A stretch of DNA of 64,000 nt. Origin: Escherichia phage vB_EcoM_G2540-3. The notes below the pieces were generated by a model. The model saw only the letters and a list, made by a program, of their open reading frames with translations, was not told the DNA's origin and searched no databases. Positions 9,973-59,393 of the stretch are shown here, piece by piece. Positions within the stretch are counted from its first letter, which is position 1, and the number at the start of each line of letters is the position of its first letter. The stretch lies in the sequence record MK327944.1; one strand, written 5' to 3'. Position numbers and translations under genes: made by a program.

Positions 9973-10563
9973 ATGCTCTTTACATTTTTTGATCCGATTG
10001 AATATGCGGCCAAAACGGTGAATAAAAACGCGCCGACTATTCCTATGACAGATATTTTTAGAAACTATAAAGACTATTTCAAACGCGCTCTTGCGGGATA
10101 CCGTTTACGTACTTATTATATTAAAGGTTCACCACGCCCGGAAGAATTAGCAAATGCTATATATGGAAATCCACAGTTGTATTGGGTTTTATTGATGTGT
10201 AATGATAATTATGATCCGTATTATGGATGGATTACTTCGCAAGAAGCTGCTTATCAAGCATCTATACAAAAATACAAAAATGTAGGTGGAGACCAAATAG
10301 TATATCATGTGAATGAGAATGGTGAAAAATTTTATAATTTAATATCATACGATGATAATCCATATGTTTGGTATGACAAAGGCGATAAAGCTAGAAAATA
10401 TCCTCAATATGAAGGAGCACTTGCTGCGGTCGATACGTATGAAGCTGCTGTTCTTGAAAATGAAAAACTTCGTCAAATAAAAATAATAGCAAAATCAGAC
10501 ATTAATTCATTTATGAACGACCTTATACGTATAATGGAGAAATCTTATGGAAATGATAAGTAA
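9973..10563 (+). CDS. 53: baseplate wedge protein gp53
   Basis: 196 aa, T4 gp53 size; immediately upstream of gene 5. Confidence 0.8.
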   Translation: MLFTFFDPIEYAAKTVNKNAPTIPMTDIFRNYKDYFKRALAGYRLRTYYIKGSPRPEELANAIYGNPQLYWVLLMCNDNYDPYYGWITSQEAAYQASIQKYKNVGGDQIVYHVNENGEKFYNLISYDDNPYVWYDKGDKARKYPQYEGALAAVDTYEAAVLENEKLRQIKIIAKSDINSFMNDLIRIMEKSYGNDK

Positions 10564-12274
10564 TAACCTTAATTGGTTTGTTGGTGTTGTTGAAGATAGA
10601 ATGGACCCATTAAAATTAGGTCGTGTTCGTGTTCGTGTGGTTGGTCTGCATCCACCTCAAAGAGCACAAGGCGATGTAATGGGTATTCCAACTGAAAAAT
10701 TACCATGGATGTCAGTTATTCAACCTATAACTTCTGCAGCAATGTCTGGAATTGGAGGTTCTGTTACTGGACCGGTAGAAGGAACTAGAGTTTATGGTCA
10801 TTTTTTAGACAAATGGAAAACTAACGGAATTGTTCTTGGCACGTATGGTGGAATAGTTCGCGAAAAGCCTAATAGACTTGAAGGATTTTCTGACCCGACT
10901 GGACAGTATCCTAGACGTCTAGGAAATGATACTAACGTATTAAACCAAGGCGGAGAAGTAGGATATGATTCGTCTTCTAATATTATCCAAGATAGTAATT
11001 TAGATACTGCGATAAATCCCGATGATAGACCACTATCAGAGATTCCAACTGATGATAATCCAAATATGTCAATGGCTGAAATGCTTCGCCGTGATGAAGG
11101 ATTAAGACTAAAAGTTTATTGGGATACTGAAGGATATCCGACAATTGGTATTGGTCATCTTATCATGAAGCAGCCAGTTCGTGATATGGCCCAAATTAAT
11201 AAAGTTTTATCAAAACAAGTTGGTCGTGAAATTACCGGAAATCCAGGTTCTATTACAATGGAAGAAGCGGTAACTTTATTTGAACGTGATTTAGCTGATA
11301 TGCAACGTGACATTAAATCACATTCTAAAGTTGGCCCAGTTTGGAAAGCAGTTAATCGTTCTCGTCAAATGGCATTAGAAAATATGGCATTTCAGATGGG
11401 TGTTGGCGGTGTAGCTAAATTTAACACAATGTTAACAGCTATGTTAGCCGGAGATTGGGAAAAAGCATATAAAGCTGGTCGTGATTCATTGTGGTATCAA
11501 CAAACAAAAGGCCGTGCATCTCGTGTTACCATGATTATTCTTACAGGGAATTTGGAATCATACGGTATTGAAGTGAAAACACCAGCTAGGTCTTTGTCGG
11601 CAATGGCTGCTACTGTAGCTAAATCTTCTGATCCAGCTGACCCTCCTATTCCGAATGATTCGAGAATTTTATTTAAAGAACCTGTTTCTTCATATAAAGG
11701 TGAATATCCTTATGTGCATACAATGGAAACTGAAAGCGGTCATATTCAGGAATTTGATGATACCCCTGGGCAAGAACGATATAGATTAGTTCATCCGACT
11801 GGAACGTATGAGGAAGTGTCACCGTCAGGAAGAAGAACAAGAAAAACTGTTGATAATTTGTATGATATAACAAACGCTGACGGTAATTTTTTGGTAGCCG
11901 GCGATAAAAAGACTAACGTCGGTGGATCAGAAATTTATTACAACATGGATAATCGTCTTCACCAAATAGATGGAAGCAATACGATATTTGTGCGTGGCGA
12001 TGAAACTAAGACGGTTGAAGGTAATGGAACTATCCTAGTCAAAGGTAATGTTACTATTGTAGTTGAAGGTAATGCTGACATTACAGTTAAAGGGGATGCT
12101 ACTACTTTAGTTGAAGGAAATCAAACTAACACAGTAAATGGAAATCTTTCTTGGAAAGTTGCTGGGACAGTTGATTGGGACGTTGGTGGTGATTGGACAG
12201 AAAAAATGGCATCTATGAGTTCTATTTCATCTGGTCAATACACAATTGATGGATCGAGGATTGACATTGGCTAA
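10547..12274 (+). CDS. 5: baseplate hub / cell-puncturing protein with lysozyme domain
   Basis: 575 aa; N-terminus MEMISNNLNWFVGVVED; internal lysozyme-like MAEMLRRDEGLRLKVYWDTEGYPTIGIGHL; C-terminal VxGxxxxx beta-helix repeats. Confidence 0.9.
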   Translation: MEMISNNLNWFVGVVEDRMDPLKLGRVRVRVVGLHPPQRAQGDVMGIPTEKLPWMSVIQPITSAAMSGIGGSVTGPVEGTRVYGHFLDKWKTNGIVLGTYGGIVREKPNRLEGFSDPTGQYPRRLGNDTNVLNQGGEVGYDSSSNIIQDSNLDTAINPDDRPLSEIPTDDNPNMSMAEMLRRDEGLRLKVYWDTEGYPTIGIGHLIMKQPVRDMAQINKVLSKQVGREITGNPGSITMEEAVTLFERDLADMQRDIKSHSKVGPVWKAVNRSRQMALENMAFQMGVGGVAKFNTMLTAMLAGDWEKAYKAGRDSLWYQQTKGRASRVTMIILTGNLESYGIEVKTPARSLSAMAATVAKSSDPADPPIPNDSRILFKEPVSSYKGEYPYVHTMETESGHIQEFDDTPGQERYRLVHPTGTYEEVSPSGRRTRKTVDNLYDITNADGNFLVAGDKKTNVGGSEIYYNMDNRLHQIDGSNTIFVRGDETKTVEGNGTILVKGNVTIVVEGNADITVKGDATTLVEGNQTNTVNGNLSWKVAGTVDWDVGGDWTEKMASMSSISSGQYTIDGSRIDIG

Positions 12275-42942: not shown

Positions 42943-44361
42943 TTATGGATAGGTATAAATGATACCAGTTTCTAAAGCAGTTTTATGAATGATGTATCCA
43001 TTGCGCGATTCTTGAACATCAACTTCTGGATAGTCTTTCATCATCTTCTGAAGAGTGTAACGATGCAGGTAGTATTTACTATCTGGATCTTCAGTTTTCC
43101 AATCTTTACCTTCTTCAGTCATTTTTTGGATTTCATCCATAACCCACCAACCGCACCAGATATAAGCTGAGCTACGATGTGGAAGAGGATGAACATAAGG
43201 TAATTCACCTTCTGGTTCCGGAGCAACTTTATCAGTCACTTGAACTTGACCTGTGGCTTTAACTGTTTTACTATCATAGTCAGTTGCTGTAACGACAGCA
43301 GTAACTTCAATAGTTTGACTTCCAATAGATGAGGTATCAACAGTATATACGTTAGTTGACCCTTCCACAGGAGAAGAATCTTTCTTCCATGAGTAAGTAA
43401 TTTGTGCTGCTTCAGGTGCGCCATTAACATTAGCAGTAAATGTAGCCGAAGCATCTTGCTGAACATTAATAGAAGGAGGAGTCAATGTAACCTGTGGATT
43501 CATTGTCTTCTTATTAACTGTCAATGATACTTCATTGGAAGTAACTTCCTTTTCATTATAATTTTCTGCAGTTACTTGGGCTACGCATTTAATTCTTTTT
43601 ACTCCACTTGTAGTTGGAGTATAGTTAAATGTAGAGTTAGTTTCTCCACCAACTTGTGAATCATCTACATACCACTGATACGTAGCAGACGCTCCGTCAG
43701 GTTGAGAAGCTAATGCAGCAGTAAATTGAACCGGGGTTCCAATTACTCCAGCAGCAGGACTAGCAGGAGTTACTGCCAAGGTAGTTGTCTGTGTCTTTTT
43801 ATTAACTGTCAATGATACTTCATTGGAAGTAACGCTCAGTGCATCATAATCTGTCGCAGTTACTTGAGCTACACACTTAATTTTTTTAACTCCGCTTGTA
43901 GTAGGAGTATAATTGAATGTAGCAGAAGTTGCTTCGCTCACAGGAGAACCGTCAACGTACCATTGATACGTAGCAGATGCGCCCGATGGCTGTGAAGCTA
44001 AGGCAGCAGTAAATTCAACGGCTGTTCCGATTACTCCTTCTGGAGGACTATTAGGAGTTACAGCTAAAGTAGTTGTCTGTGTTTTATTTTGAACTGTAAT
44101 AGTTGTACTAATTTCAGCTGTTTCAGCTTCAGAATCAGGAATAGTATTTGTTGCAACTACCTTAATAGTCTTTTGACCAGCAGGTCCTTTTAATACATAA
44201 TCAAAAGTTGCTGCTGATCCTTCTTGGGGAGCATTATCTACGCTCCAAGCATAGGTAATAGTTCCACCTCCAGTTTCACCACTGGGTGTAGCAGTAAACT
44301 GCTTGGTTTCATCAATAACCCCTGTTGGTGTTTTAGGAGTTATATCAACTGTAAAAGCCAT
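42943..44361 (-). CDS. hoc: highly immunogenic outer capsid protein Hoc with four Ig-like domains (one duplicated)
   Basis: 472 aa; N-terminus MAFTVDITPKTPTGVIDETKQF; two consecutive 96-aa Ig-like units about 88% identical; conserved C-terminal capsid-binding region. Confidence 0.85.
   Translation of the reverse strand: MAFTVDITPKTPTGVIDETKQFTATPSGETGGGTITYAWSVDNAPQEGSAATFDYVLKGPAGQKTIKVVATNTIPDSEAETAEISTTITVQNKTQTTTLAVTPNSPPEGVIGTAVEFTAALASQPSGASATYQWYVDGSPVSEATSATFNYTPTTSGVKKIKCVAQVTATDYDALSVTSNEVSLTVNKKTQTTTLAVTPASPAAGVIGTPVQFTAALASQPDGASATYQWYVDDSQVGGETNSTFNYTPTTSGVKRIKCVAQVTAENYNEKEVTSNEVSLTVNKKTMNPQVTLTPPSINVQQDASATFTANVNGAPEAAQITYSWKKDSSPVEGSTNVYTVDTSSIGSQTIEVTAVVTATDYDSKTVKATGQVQVTDKVAPEPEGELPYVHPLPHRSSAYIWCGWWVMDEIQKMTEEGKDWKTEDPDSKYYLHRYTLQKMMKDYPEVDVQESRNGYIIHKTALETGIIYTYP
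43501..43788 (-). repeat. hoc Ig-like domain unit, copy B (288 bp)
   Basis: DNA period of 288 bp (e.g. ttattaactgtcaatgatacttcattggaagtaac at 43511 and 43799); in-frame. Confidence 0.8.
43789..44076 (-). repeat. hoc Ig-like domain unit, copy A (288 bp)
   Basis: Tandem partner of 43501-43788. Confidence 0.8.
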
Positions 44362-45720: not shown

Positions 45721-47229
45721 ATGGATATTAAAGTACATTTTCACGACTTCAGTCATGTACGCATCGATTGTGAAGAGAGCACGTTCCACGAATTAAGAGA
45801 TTTCTTTTCGTTTGAGGCCGATGGATATAGATTTAACCCTCGCTTCAGATATGGCAACTGGGATGGACGAATCCGTCTTTTAGATTATAATCGTCTTCTT
45901 CCGTTTGGCTTAGTCGGGCAAATTAAAAAGTTCTGTGATAACTTTGGCTATAAAGCCTGGATTGACCCGCAAATTAACGAAAAAGAAGAATTATCAAGAA
46001 AAGATTTTGATGAATGGCTTTCTAAATTAGAAATCTATTCAGGAAATAAAAGAATTGAACCGCACTGGTATCAAAAAGATGCAGTGTTCGAAGGATTAGT
46101 TAATCGTCGTAGAATTCTTAATCTTCCAACATCCGCAGGTAAATCTTTAATTCAAGCTTTGCTTGCACGTTATTATTTGGAAAATTATGAAGGTAAAATT
46201 CTTATCATTGTTCCAACAACTGCTCTGACAACTCAGATGGCTGATGACTTCGTCGACTATCGTTTATTCAGTCATGCAATGATAAAGAAAATTGGTGGCG
46301 GAGCATCAAAAGATGATAAATATAAAAATGATGCACCAGTCGTTGTTGGTACATGGCAAACTGTAGTTAAACAACCGAAAGAATGGTTCTCACAGTTTGG
46401 AATGATGATGAATGATGAATGTCATCTTGCTACAGGAAAAAGTATTTCATCTATCATATCAGGTTTAAATAACTGCATGTTCAAATTCGGTTTGTCTGGT
46501 TCATTACGTGATGGCAAAGCCAATATCATGCAGTATGTTGGAATGTTTGGTGAAATATTTAAGCCAGTAACGACTTCTAAATTAATGGAAGATGGACAAG
46601 TAACTGAGCTAAAAATTAATAGTATTTTTCTTCGCTATCCAGATGAGTTCACTACTAAATTAAAGGGAAAAACTTATCAAGAAGAAATAAAAATTATTAC
46701 TGGGCTCAGTAAAAGAAATAAATGGATCGCTAAATTAGCTATTAAGCTTGCGCAAAAAGATGAAAACGCTTTTGTCATGTTTAAACATGTATCACATGGT
46801 AAAGCTATTTTCGATTTAATTAAAAACGAATACGATAAAGTTTATTACGTATCAGGGGAAGTTGATACAGAAACCCGCAATATAATGAAAACCTTAGCTG
46901 AAAACGGTAAAGGAATAATTATAGTAGCTAGTTATGGTGTATTTTCTACTGGTATTTCAGTTAAAAATCTGCATCACGTTGTTTTAGCACACGGTGTTAA
47001 ATCAAAAATCATTGTATTACAAACAATCGGTCGTGTATTACGTAAGCATGGTTCTAAAACAATCGCAACAGTCTGGGACCTCATAGATGACGCGGGTGTA
47101 GTTTCTAAATCAAAAACATCTTCTAAAAAATACTCGCATTTAAACTATCTTTTAAAACATGGACTTGATCGTATTCAGCGTTATGCTGATGAAAAGTTTA
47201 ATTATGTGATGAAAGAGGTTAAACTTTGA
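45721..47229 (+). CDS. uvsW: DNA/RNA helicase UvsW
   Basis: 502 aa; Walker A-like PTSAGKSL and DExH-like MMNDECH. Confidence 0.85.
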   Translation: MDIKVHFHDFSHVRIDCEESTFHELRDFFSFEADGYRFNPRFRYGNWDGRIRLLDYNRLLPFGLVGQIKKFCDNFGYKAWIDPQINEKEELSRKDFDEWLSKLEIYSGNKRIEPHWYQKDAVFEGLVNRRRILNLPTSAGKSLIQALLARYYLENYEGKILIIVPTTALTTQMADDFVDYRLFSHAMIKKIGGGASKDDKYKNDAPVVVGTWQTVVKQPKEWFSQFGMMMNDECHLATGKSISSIISGLNNCMFKFGLSGSLRDGKANIMQYVGMFGEIFKPVTTSKLMEDGQVTELKINSIFLRYPDEFTTKLKGKTYQEEIKIITGLSKRNKWIAKLAIKLAQKDENAFVMFKHVSHGKAIFDLIKNEYDKVYYVSGEVDTETRNIMKTLAENGKGIIIVASYGVFSTGISVKNLHHVVLAHGVKSKIIVLQTIGRVLRKHGSKTIATVWDLIDDAGVVSKSKTSSKKYSHLNYLLKHGLDRIQRYADEKFNYVMKEVKL

Positions 47230-47918
47230 ATTATAAATTAATATATGATAATTTAATTAATAGAGCCCAAAATCGGGCTCGCCTTAATGGATACACTGAA
47301 ACACATCATATAATTCCTAGATGTATGGGTGGTACAAATGATAAGTGTAATTTAGTAGAACTAACGGCTGAAGAACATTTTATAGCCCATAAACTTTTAG
47401 CTAAAATTCATCCAAACCATTACGGTATAATTAAAGCTGTTATATGTATGGGGATGAATTCAAATACTCATGAAAGACACGTTAATAAATCTTACGCATG
47501 GGAACGTCGTAAAATGGCAGAACTTCAATCCGGCGAAGGTAATCCATTTTACGGAAAACACCATACGGAAGAACATAAACAATATATGTCAAAACTCATG
47601 AAAAGTCGTCCAATTACATGGGGAAATAAAATTAGTAAAACTAAAAGAATGAACCCAACGAAATGGACTGAAGAAGCTAAAAGATTACATTCAATCAATC
47701 AATCGGGTAAAAATAACGGCATGTATGGAAGGAAACATTCCGCTAAATCTATTCAGAAAATTAAAGATAACATGCCAGATAATTCAGGAGCTAATAACCC
47801 AGCTGCTAAACCTATAGAAGTAAATGGTGTTAAGTATAAATGTATGAAAGATGCTTCTAAAGCTACTGGATTATCAATGTACAAACTAAGAATACTTAGA
47901 AAAACAGTTAATTTATAA
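47226..47918 (+). CDS. free-standing HNH homing endonuclease (paralog of the gene 13/14 insert)
   Basis: HHIIPRCMGG...NLVELTAEEHFIAH; N-terminus MNYKLIY parallels MNYTKIY of 26546..27358; TTG start overlaps uvsW stop. Confidence 0.7.
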   Translation: MNYKLIYDNLINRAQNRARLNGYTETHHIIPRCMGGTNDKCNLVELTAEEHFIAHKLLAKIHPNHYGIIKAVICMGMNSNTHERHVNKSYAWERRKMAELQSGEGNPFYGKHHTEEHKQYMSKLMKSRPITWGNKISKTKRMNPTKWTEEAKRLHSINQSGKNNGMYGRKHSAKSIQKIKDNMPDNSGANNPAAKPIEVNGVKYKCMKDASKATGLSMYKLRILRKTVNL

Positions 47919-47931: not shown

Positions 47932-48174
47932 TTGGAGAAAAAGATGTTACTAAAATTTAAACAATTTCTTTATGAAGCTTCTATTGATGAATTTATGGGT
48001 AAAATTGCCTCTTGTCAAACATTAGAAGGTTTAGAAGAACTTGAAGCTTATTATAAGAAAAGAGTCAAAGAAACTGAATTAAAAGATACTGATGACATCT
48101 CTGTGAGAGATGCTTTGGCAGGAAAAAGAGCTGAATTAGAAGATTCAGACGATGAAGTAGAAGAAAGCTTTTAA
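47932..48174 (+). CDS. small acidic protein, UvsW.1-like
   Basis: 80-aa ORF after the uvsW region. Confidence 0.55.
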   Translation: MEKKMLLKFKQFLYEASIDEFMGKIASCQTLEGLEELEAYYKKRVKETELKDTDDISVRDALAGKRAELEDSDDEVEESF

Positions 48175-56894: not shown

Positions 56895-57280
56895 CTATAA
56901 CACAACACGAGGGACTTGTAAACTACATTTTGAACTTTTTAGTACGCGTAATAGGCATGCGTCGATTTTATACTGTTTCATTGTTTGAAGAGCAGTATCA
57001 AAAACAGCATTAATGACACCAATTGGATTTCCACCCAAGTTTTTAAGCTTAACTAATGATAGTTTCTCATTAACACCTATCATTACGATATGCATCATTT
57101 TATCGCCCGGCTTAACGTTTTATTCGTATCACCGCCAGAGGTGTATGTACAAAATCTAAATCCAGGAAGCACGCTTTCTTCGCCGGCTTGAATAGCAAAA
57201 ATTTGTGGTATTTTATGCTTAGGATTTAAGTTAACAACCGGCGCCGAAGCGCCGTCAAATAATTCTGTAATAAGTTCCAT
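56895..57280 (-). pseudogene. decayed paralog of the alt N-terminal region, interrupted by a frameshift
   Basis: ORFs 57095..57280 and 56895..57098 in different frames together align to alt residues 1 to about 125; 1-nt indel relative to alt. Confidence 0.6.
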
Positions 57281-57283
57281 GAT

Positions 57284-57610
57284 TTATCCTTGAACGAACT
57301 TGTAAGGCATGTTTGCAATATCTATGCAAGACGCAATAATTCCAAGAGATGATTCTACTTTCTGTTTAACATTTGATGAAACAAATGATGCAAAGTCAAC
57401 TCTATCTTCTATATCACCTGTCATTGTAACCAATTCACCAGTTTCCATTAAACGGTCACCGTCATAGATTACCGATTCGGTGAGTTCTTCTGTGGTCATA
57501 ACTTCAGCTTGAATAAGCTTGTTGTTAGTTCTAACTGTTCCATCGTTGTAAGATGCATCGGTTATTTTATTAACTTTGACCATTAATCCACGTGGCAAAA
57601 TGACTTCCAT
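57284..57610 (-). CDS. alt C-terminal fragment (108 aa) detached by the 55-bp duplication; starts within the E-M-E motif
   Basis: Frame is continuous with alt if one repeat copy is removed; weak RBS, so probably not expressed on its own. Confidence 0.6.
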   Translation of the reverse strand: MEVILPRGLMVKVNKITDASYNDGTVRTNNKLIQAEVMTTEELTESVIYDGDRLMETGELVTMTGDIEDRVDFASFVSSNVKQKVESSLGIIASCIDIANMPYKFVQG

Positions 57611-57623
57611 TTCATTTGAAGGC

Positions 57624-57678
57624 GCTAAACTTCCACCGGGTAAAACAACATTGACCTTATCAGCCCCAGTAATAACCC
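57624..57678. repeat. 55-bp perfect tandem duplication, copy 1 (contains the premature alt stop)
   Basis: gctaaacttccaccgggtaaaacaacattgaccttatcagccccagtaataaccc, identical to 57679-57733. Confidence 0.95.
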
Positions 57679-59393
57679 GCTAAACTTCCACCGGGTAAAA
57701 CAACATTGACCTTATCAGCCCCAGTAATAACCCATCCAATTCCAACTAAATTATCGCTAGAATTTACTAGTCCTTCATCAGTTTTATCAATAGAAACACT
57801 TAGACGCTTTTCGTCTGGTAAAACACCTATAGATGAATCAGTCATCCAAGTACCAAAAATATTTGGATATAATGATGTTGACACAAAGTTTCTAAAATAA
57901 AAAACTCGATTTTTTACCATTGCTTCATATATTGAAGGTAACATTCGTTGTGAACGATACAAAGTAATACCTTTTGGTAATCGTTCACCATTTTTAAAGG
58001 CTGAATCTAAATTATCAATGGCTTGTTCTATTTCAGGTGCTGTTAAAATACTTGTACGCTCATCTGGATTATATAATCCCAAAAGAGCATTATTTATGTC
58101 TACATATCCTGAACCTACATATTCACGAATTCCGCGTTTTTGCGCTGGTGTGTATTTAGATGAATCTTTATTTTCGACTATAGGATGTAATGACCATCCA
58201 GCGGTAAGAGCATATCCACGTAATTCTCTTCGAATAATCTTTGTTTTTATTGCATTCCAAGAATTTTGCACTAACTCATTATTCGCAGCGTCTTGATTTA
58301 AATGCGAATGTCTGTTAATATTTCTTTCAAACCAGGCACCTTTATATTTTTCTAAAGTATCATCGACGATAGAAGCAATAGTTTCTAAAGTTTTTATTGA
58401 AGTAATAGATTCTTTTCGTAATTTTTCTAAAGCTTTATTTTTTATTTCTGCATTAATAATGGATTCTTTATCTTCAGGAATTATAGAAGCTTCTCTGAAT
58501 GCCATCCCAGCTGTAACACTGCTAAGAGCATTCTCTAGTGCAAATCCTGAAGTAGAAATTACCGTTAATTCATTAGAATCAGAAATTAAAGGCGCGTCCG
58601 CTGGTTTATTTAATTCTGCCGCTGAAGCCTCAAATTTTTGAAACATCGGTGTTTCAAATCTAGAAGATTCCAATGACTGACTTTGTGCAATTGCTCTACG
58701 GGAAATTTTAACTTTAACGATTACAGCTTGGTCAGAACGTTTATCATTTTCTTGTGCAATAGATGCTGCAATTGCCTCATTTTTAGTTACTTGAGCTCCA
58801 GTATCTTTATTGATATAAACATCACCGACCTTCGATTCAACTTTAGTAAAGAGCTCGGTACTAATTTCCGGAACCCCTGGAATGTCTTCTAGTGATACAT
58901 TTTTGCGATGTATAAGAATATATGCATACTTTTTATCATAATCCCAGAGTTCCTTAAGAAGGACGTATCTGCCACCTGAACGACTACGGATAAGTCTATC
59001 AGCAATAACTTGAATTTGTCGAGCTTGGCCAGCAGTTTTAGACTTAAGAATACGAAGCATACAAGCATCAATTTTATACTGACGCATTGTTTGCATTGCA
59101 ACAGTAAAAACCGAATTGATATAATTAATTGGGCTTGGACCAAGACCTTTCAATTTAGCAATTGAACCTTTAGCGGTTAATGTAAAAGGAACAATATGCA
59201 TCATTTTATCGCCCATCTTTAAATCACGATTAGTATCACCTCCAGATGTATAGGTACATAAACGAAAGCCTGGTTGTTCAATTGCGTCATCAACATGAAC
59301 TGAAAAAATTTGCGGTATTTTCTTCTTTGGATTTAAGTTTGTAATCGGAAGAGTAGTATCTTCGTCAAATAATTCTGTAATTAGTTCCATCAT
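57660..59393 (-). CDS. alt: ADP-ribosyltransferase Alt, truncated (577 aa; about 684 aa expected if uninterrupted)
   Basis: Late promoter and RBS upstream; C-terminal region has TLYRSQ and FVSTSL (R and STS motifs); ends in frameshifted tail GYYWG-stop inside repeat copy 1. Confidence 0.75.
   Translation of the reverse strand: MMELITELFDEDTTLPITNLNPKKKIPQIFSVHVDDAIEQPGFRLCTYTSGGDTNRDLKMGDKMMHIVPFTLTAKGSIAKLKGLGPSPINYINSVFTVAMQTMRQYKIDACMLRILKSKTAGQARQIQVIADRLIRSRSGGRYVLLKELWDYDKKYAYILIHRKNVSLEDIPGVPEISTELFTKVESKVGDVYINKDTGAQVTKNEAIAASIAQENDKRSDQAVIVKVKISRRAIAQSQSLESSRFETPMFQKFEASAAELNKPADAPLISDSNELTVISTSGFALENALSSVTAGMAFREASIIPEDKESIINAEIKNKALEKLRKESITSIKTLETIASIVDDTLEKYKGAWFERNINRHSHLNQDAANNELVQNSWNAIKTKIIRRELRGYALTAGWSLHPIVENKDSSKYTPAQKRGIREYVGSGYVDINNALLGLYNPDERTSILTAPEIEQAIDNLDSAFKNGERLPKGITLYRSQRMLPSIYEAMVKNRVFYFRNFVSTSLYPNIFGTWMTDSSIGVLPDEKRLSVSIDKTDEGLVNSSDNLVGIGWVITGADKVNVVLPGGSLAGYYWG
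57679..57733. repeat. 55-bp perfect tandem duplication, copy 2
   Basis: Identical to copy 1. Confidence 0.95.

Follow-up and report, generated by a model that had tools for sequence, protein, structure and literature searches.

A perfect 55-bp tandem duplication interrupting the alt gene of Escherichia phage vB_EcoM_G2540-3 and its probable origin as an assembly artefact

Genomic context and organization of the alt locus

The window, i.e., the whole stretch of 64,000 nucleotides analysed from the sequence record of Escherichia phage vB_EcoM_G2540-3 (MK327944.1), is a Tequatrovirus (T4-type) segment; from nudE to gene 30.8, it is collinear with the T4 record and runs in the same orientation. 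According to a 24-kb megablast against the phage collection, the closest genomes are approximately 96–97% identical over 24 kb. The 577- and 576-aa Alt fragments, the 108-aa ORF, and the DNA ligase of the window gave no exact protein match among the records searched, and 60-mers private to the window were absent from IMG/VR (two 60-mers) and the JGI metagenome contigs (one 60-mer). The gene addressed here, on the minus strand, is flanked by gene 30/alt.1 on one side and alt.-1/-2/-3/gene 54 on the other, which is the orthologous position of alt, and its DNA exhibited 97.9–99.3% identity to the annotated Alt genes of T4-type phages. Synteny and DNA identity thus confirmed its initial annotation as alt. 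As written in the record, the gene comprises the following features:

57660..59393, minus strand: alt 5′ open reading frame (ORF) as written, 577 aa from the first ATG
57678..57732, minus strand: 55-nt copy that comes first in gene direction, in frame, encoding ...W-VITGADKVNVVLPGGSLA
57623..57677, minus strand: second, identical 55-nt copy in gene direction, supernumerary, read +1-shifted as GYYWG-stop
57605..57613, minus strand: E-M-E codons, EXE catalytic motif, by alignment to the CdtA EXE stretch
57284..57679, minus strand: detached alt 3′ part, an open frame of 131 codons

The 577-aa ORF consists of 572 native residues followed by 5 aberrant ones and a TGA at 57662-57660, giving the C-terminus ...GGSLAGYYWG-stop. 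It retains the N-terminal MELITE-type propeptide, as well as R480 (57954-57956) and S505-T506-S507 (57873-57881). The first ATG of the detached 3′ part is found at 57610 and opens a 108-aa ORF (57284..57610) that starts with MEVILPRG; no Shine–Dalgarno sequence was found before this ATG. When one 55-nt copy was deleted in silico, a gene of 2055 nt (684 codons) was obtained, which reads ...GGSLAPSNEMEVILPRG... Since 55 = 54 + 1, the extra copy shifts the alt frame. The ORF list and the translation bore out the arithmetic of the initial annotation, namely a frame shift in alt followed by a stop after GYYWG, a 108-aa ORF lying in the frame that alt would have once one copy is removed, and a restored protein of 684 aa.

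The alt gene opens with ATGATG (59388-59393). A GAGG Shine–Dalgarno sequence lies only 2–3 nt from the first ATG and 5–6 nt from the second (59390). Owing to this spacing and to the T4 annotation, which places the start at the second ATG, position 59390 is a likelier alt start than the first ATG (59393). The previously given lengths of 577 and 684 aa are therefore valid when counted from the first ATG, and the real lengths are 576 and 683 aa if translation starts at 59390.

The N-terminal region of Alt (MELITELFD..., ...KQYKIDAC...) is repeated in two small minus-strand ORFs, one of 61 aa (57095..57280) and one of 67 aa (56895..57098). These are the counterparts of T4 alt.-1/alt.-2, which the T4 annotation describes as an old, partial duplicate of alt with an internal stop; this known feature has no relation to the 55-bp repeat. 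The alt locus is also variable among relatives. For example, phiC600P9 (MZ681930; L009, 7346-11455) bears two full-length tandem Alt paralogs of 685 and 682 aa, and several contigs (L004, L011, and L012; 7707-9801) encode a 697-aa Alt whose gene aligns to the alt of the window solely over its first 742 nt and its last ~330 nt, indicating that the central region is mosaic or replaced.

Sequence features of the 55-bp repeat

Tandem Repeats Finder revealed one array inside alt (57623..57733) with a period of 55, 2.0 copies, 100% matches, and zero indels. By exact-pattern search, the 55-mer was present exactly two times in the window (57623-57677 and 57678-57732), with an expected number of occurrences of 0 according to 100 shuffles of the window. 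The copies show 100% identity and follow each other with no intervening spacer, so that the junction joins ...GGAAGTTTAGCG directly to GGTTATTACTGG... The self-identity at offset 55 extends over 56 nt, which makes the unit boundary ambiguous by one base (a shared G) and accounts for the coordinates 57624-57678 and 57679-57733 reported initially. Alignment with phage e11/2, T4, and two metagenome contigs displayed the repeat as a clean 55-nt insertion in otherwise identical sequence. The perfect adjacent duplication claimed in the initial annotation is thus real in the sequence, as both Tandem Repeats Finder and the exact-pattern search demonstrated, and the 55-bp doubling that breaks alt is truly in the sequence as given. 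The labelling of the copies required correction, since the one previously called copy 1 is the second copy in the reading direction of the gene.

An endpoint microhomology search showed that the duplication endpoints have only 1 nt in common, with neither flanking direct repeats nor a repeat family, and a search for hairpins at the repeat boundaries, as a sign of real slippage, found none of note. Given that flanking direct repeats are absent, there is nothing to template a slippage event. These results bear on one explanation for the repeat, namely a genuine, very recent spontaneous 55-bp tandem duplication that produced a loss-of-function alt allele private to this isolate, which we regard as unlikely. 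The sequence as given encodes exactly the truncated allele that this explanation calls for, and a decayed partial duplicate of alt (alt.-1/alt.-2) is already present in the T4 lineage, suggesting that the locus tolerates rearrangement. However, microhomology or flanking repeats at the endpoints are typical, albeit not obligatory, for real duplications, and among T4 mutations, duplications of tens of bp that arise spontaneously with no homology at their endpoints constitute a small fraction. The classical T4 frameshift and duplication mutations (e.g., those in rII) likewise involve a duplicated insertion that is not a multiple of 3 and breaks the frame, but endpoint repeats of the type expected for slippage do not occur at the 55-bp repeat. 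Similarly, alt.-1/alt.-2 represents a duplication in the alt region, but an old and diverged one (~60% protein identity to alt) that is common to many phages, in contrast to the 55-bp repeat, which is perfect and private.

ADP-ribosyltransferase motifs of the interrupted and restored proteins

The restored 684-aa protein matched the Pfam family ADPrib_exo_Tox (PF03496) with 120.3 bits (cutoff 23.4), the match spanning residues 376-616 and profile positions 1-195 of 196. In contrast, the 577-aa ORF as written scored 90.7 bits and covered profile positions 1-153 of 196 only, while the 108-aa ORF carried profile positions 161-195. The coverage of the profile by both ORFs agrees with the earlier proposal that the gene is split between its R/STS motifs and its E-x-E motif. 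Specifically, the frame break occurs 4 residues before E-M-E, i.e., between the R/STS motifs and EXE; as written, E-M-E follows the TGA at 57662-57660 in a different frame and is therefore not on the R/STS polypeptide. Only after removal of one 55-nt copy are R, STS, and EXE found on one polypeptide.

Regarding the individual motifs, comparison with solved structures paired LYRS of Alt (LYR480S) with VYRR, the catalytic Arg (beta-1) stretch of CdtA, a toxin of C. difficile, and SNEMEVIL of Alt with GEYEVLL, the CdtA EXE stretch. The FVS505-T-S507L segment is located inside the PF03496 match, and the assignment of this putative Ser-Thr-Ser (beta-2) motif in Alt rests on position and sequence. 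Arginine-specific ADP-ribosyltransferases are defined by the R-S-EXE motif, and the T-phage Alt/Mod enzymes are among them (PMC3102197). In T4, the E577A substitution abolishes the catalytic activity of Alt in vivo, and phage carrying it are viable (PMC11404850). Position 577 of T4 Alt is occupied by Glu only when numbering begins at the first ATG (683 codons), and therefore E577 corresponds to the second Glu of E-M-E; the two Glu residues are E575/E577 in T4 under this numbering and E576/E578 in the restored protein. The reading of these motifs as an R-S-EXE catalytic triad, put forward in the initial annotation, was thus supported by the PF03496 match, the CdtA alignment, and the T4 Alt E577A mutant. 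Since E577A is dead and the EXE motif is detached here, the 577-aa product would be an inactive enzyme if the sequence were taken at face value.

T4 Alt, a packaged arginine-specific mono-ADP-ribosyltransferase of the R-S-EXE class, occupies the same locus (30 - alt.1 - alt - alt.-1/-2/-3 - 54) and shares its R, STS, and E-M-E motifs with the restored protein. The restored Alt was identical to T4 Alt at 674 of 684 positions (97.9% identity at the DNA level) and to the Alt of phage e11/2 at 681 of 684. Unlike in T4, the gene in the window is interrupted by an extra 55-nt copy 4 codons upstream of EXE, and the restored protein has one extra Asn at position 371, as in some relatives with a 684-aa Alt. 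Once restored, the gene is unremarkable within the T4 Alt family.

Comparison with other T4-type phages

The copy–copy junction was absent from 50,697 phage records searched with a 44-nt query centred on the junction, a query that is unable to seed on single-copy genomes. Likewise, the exact 30-nt junction was absent from IMG/VR and from the JGI metagenome contigs. In total, 174 phage records covered at least 80% of the repeat-region query, and among the matches listed all gave 186 nt versus 241 nt in the window. Ten independent contigs with an identical gp54 were also considered, and all of them (10/10) carried an intact alt of 682–697 aa with no junction. All inspected relatives were therefore single-copy at the repeat site. 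The initial annotation had proposed an alignment to reference alt genes of T-even phages as a check; those inspected have a single copy, and the two-copy form was not found among the matches listed. A naturally split alt in ESh36, apparent from two CDS under the match, was discarded, as alt is intact in that phage and the second CDS is a small overlapping call.

The detached part of the gene showed no trace of decay. Its 113 codons differed from those of e11/2 by 0 nonsynonymous changes and 1 synonymous change, the encoded protein being identical, and neither half of alt was decayed. Of the 72 T4 ORFs with a length of ≥90 aa and a match in the window, only alt was frame-broken, and on this basis poor base-level quality (homopolymer frameshifts) was rejected as the cause. 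With respect to a genuine duplication, perfect copies and an undecayed 3′ part are what would be expected of a very young mutation too. On the other hand, its allele was not found in any of the other genomes or metagenome contigs searched, and all other compared genes in the window were intact.

The comparison also bears on a functional switch, in which gain or loss of one 55-bp copy would toggle between an active full-length Alt and an inactive packaged form. Such a mechanism appears extremely improbable. The repeat has the only formal property needed, since a perfect 55-bp tandem repeat can be removed by homologous recombination and the frame restored. However, no T4-type genome searched contained two copies or a repeat polymorphism at this site, neither a recombinase nor a conserved repeat architecture accompanies it, and a single private occurrence is insufficient for a selected mechanism.

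Origin of the duplication

When a circular or circularly permuted genome is processed by a de Bruijn assembler, the contig ends overlap by exactly k, and the largest default k of SPAdes with short reads and of metaSPAdes is 55. The period of the repeat in alt is exactly 55, i.e., the k value of a common assembler. In its length, in the identity and adjacency of its copies, and in its uniqueness, the repeat has the properties of an untrimmed assembler overlap. Such an overlap could have entered the record as follows. The T4-type genome being circularly permuted, a de Bruijn assembler would return a “circular” contig with identical first and last k bases. If this contig were rotated to the conventional T4 start without trimming one of the overlapping ends, the old contig ends would be joined, and a perfect, spacer-less 55-bp tandem repeat would appear at an arbitrary internal position, in this case in alt. 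The true gene would then be an ordinary, intact alt of 683/684 codons.

The position of alt in the window is of interest in this regard. Its coordinate is 63.8–64.15 kb lower than that of alt in the T4-convention records of the nearest relatives (e11/2, ACG-C40, and fPS-90), and the window shares the orientation of the T4 record, which suggests that the window corresponds to bases 64,001–128,000 of a record beginning at the T4 (rIIA) start, i.e., of a rotated contig. We infer that this record derives from a SPAdes-type assembly followed by rotation without trimming. Comparable cases have been described: 55-bp overlapping ends of SPAdes contigs were documented for the T4-like phage 132 (PMC8483715), an equivalent end overlap of 127 bp was called an artefact (PMC5923482), and internal repeats of ~79 bp in Shovill/SPAdes phage assemblies were identified as artefacts by Sanger sequencing (PMC10438801). 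Like an untrimmed SPAdes-type overlap, the repeat in alt is perfect, directly adjacent, and of length k, here at an arbitrary site in a circularly permuted genome. In the published overlap workflows, the overlap is recognised and trimmed, whereas here it would have been retained and shifted to an internal position.

The supernumerary 55-nt copy is thus probably an assembly or finishing artefact (an untrimmed assembly overlap) that is absent from the phage genome. This interpretation is favored because the length equals a k of 55, the copies are perfect and abutting, no other genome has the duplication, endpoint homology is lacking, the 3′ part is undecayed, a single gene is frame-broken, and the record has apparently been re-opened. 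The choice between a genuine mutation and an assembly artefact, left open in the initial annotation, consequently leans towards the artefact, given the k length, the uniqueness, and the lack of endpoint homology, and the biological significance of the repeat is most likely nil.

For a genuine duplication, the length of 55 could be a coincidence, although its exact match to an assembler default k weighs against this. Alt activity is dispensable for plaque formation, as the T4 alt E577A mutant was recovered (PMC11404850), and given this dispensability an authentic duplication that inactivates the gene could reach fixation when the phage is plaque-purified. In that case, the 576/577-aa product would retain the N-terminal capsid-targeting region together with the NAD-binding R and STS motifs, and its packaging would probably continue. 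It would be devoid of the EXE loop and of the 112 C-terminal residues, predicting no ADP-ribosylation of the RNA polymerase alpha subunit, and the 108-aa ORF would not be efficiently translated owing to the lack of a Shine–Dalgarno sequence. Moreover, recombination or slippage between the copies would restore the wild type at appreciable frequency. The most far-reaching form of this scenario is a physically real but unstable duplication, i.e., a self-reverting alt-null allele that packages a dead, C-terminally truncated Alt and acts, at the extreme, as an on/off switch. If true, it would provide a natural experiment on the fitness role of the injected ADP-ribosyltransferase, but we consider it doubtful.

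Implications for sequence curation

The main value of the artefact interpretation concerns curation. If the extra copy is an artefact, the record wrongly shows alt as two fragments, and inferring the loss of the injected ADP-ribosyltransferase in this phage would be false. If it is real, it would be a null allele confined to this phage, in a gene whose dispensability is already established, and would matter only for work on this isolate. A general screen can be formulated for re-opened circular phage or plasmid assemblies, in which any perfect tandem repeat with a period equal to an assembler k should be regarded as an untrimmed overlap unless reads indicate the contrary. The k values relevant for such a screen are 21, 33, 55, 77, 99, and 127 for SPAdes, 79 for Shovill, and 141 for MEGAHIT.

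Other repeats and insertions in the window

Besides the array in alt, the window contains a 230-aa ORF (47226-47918, plus strand) with an HNH-type motif (...ETHHIIPRCMGG...EEHFIAH...). This ORF is situated between uvsW (45721..47229, 502 aa) and a uvsW.1-like ORF (47932..48174), a position at which it does not occur in T4, and relatives are annotated with “DNA helicase (x2)” at the uvsW/HNH ORF site. It is probably a freestanding homing-endonuclease insertion. Additionally, a 288-bp tandem repeat (2.1 copies, 79% matches, 43504-44097) was found inside the hoc homologue (42946-44076), whose product is only 78% identical to T4 Hoc, and presumably reflects the repeated Ig-like domains of Hoc. Finally, the 3′ end of the gene 5 homologue (10547-12271) contains repeats with periods of 24 and 48 bp (71–81% matches, 12014-12143), which fits the octapeptide repeats known from the C-terminal beta-helix of gp5.
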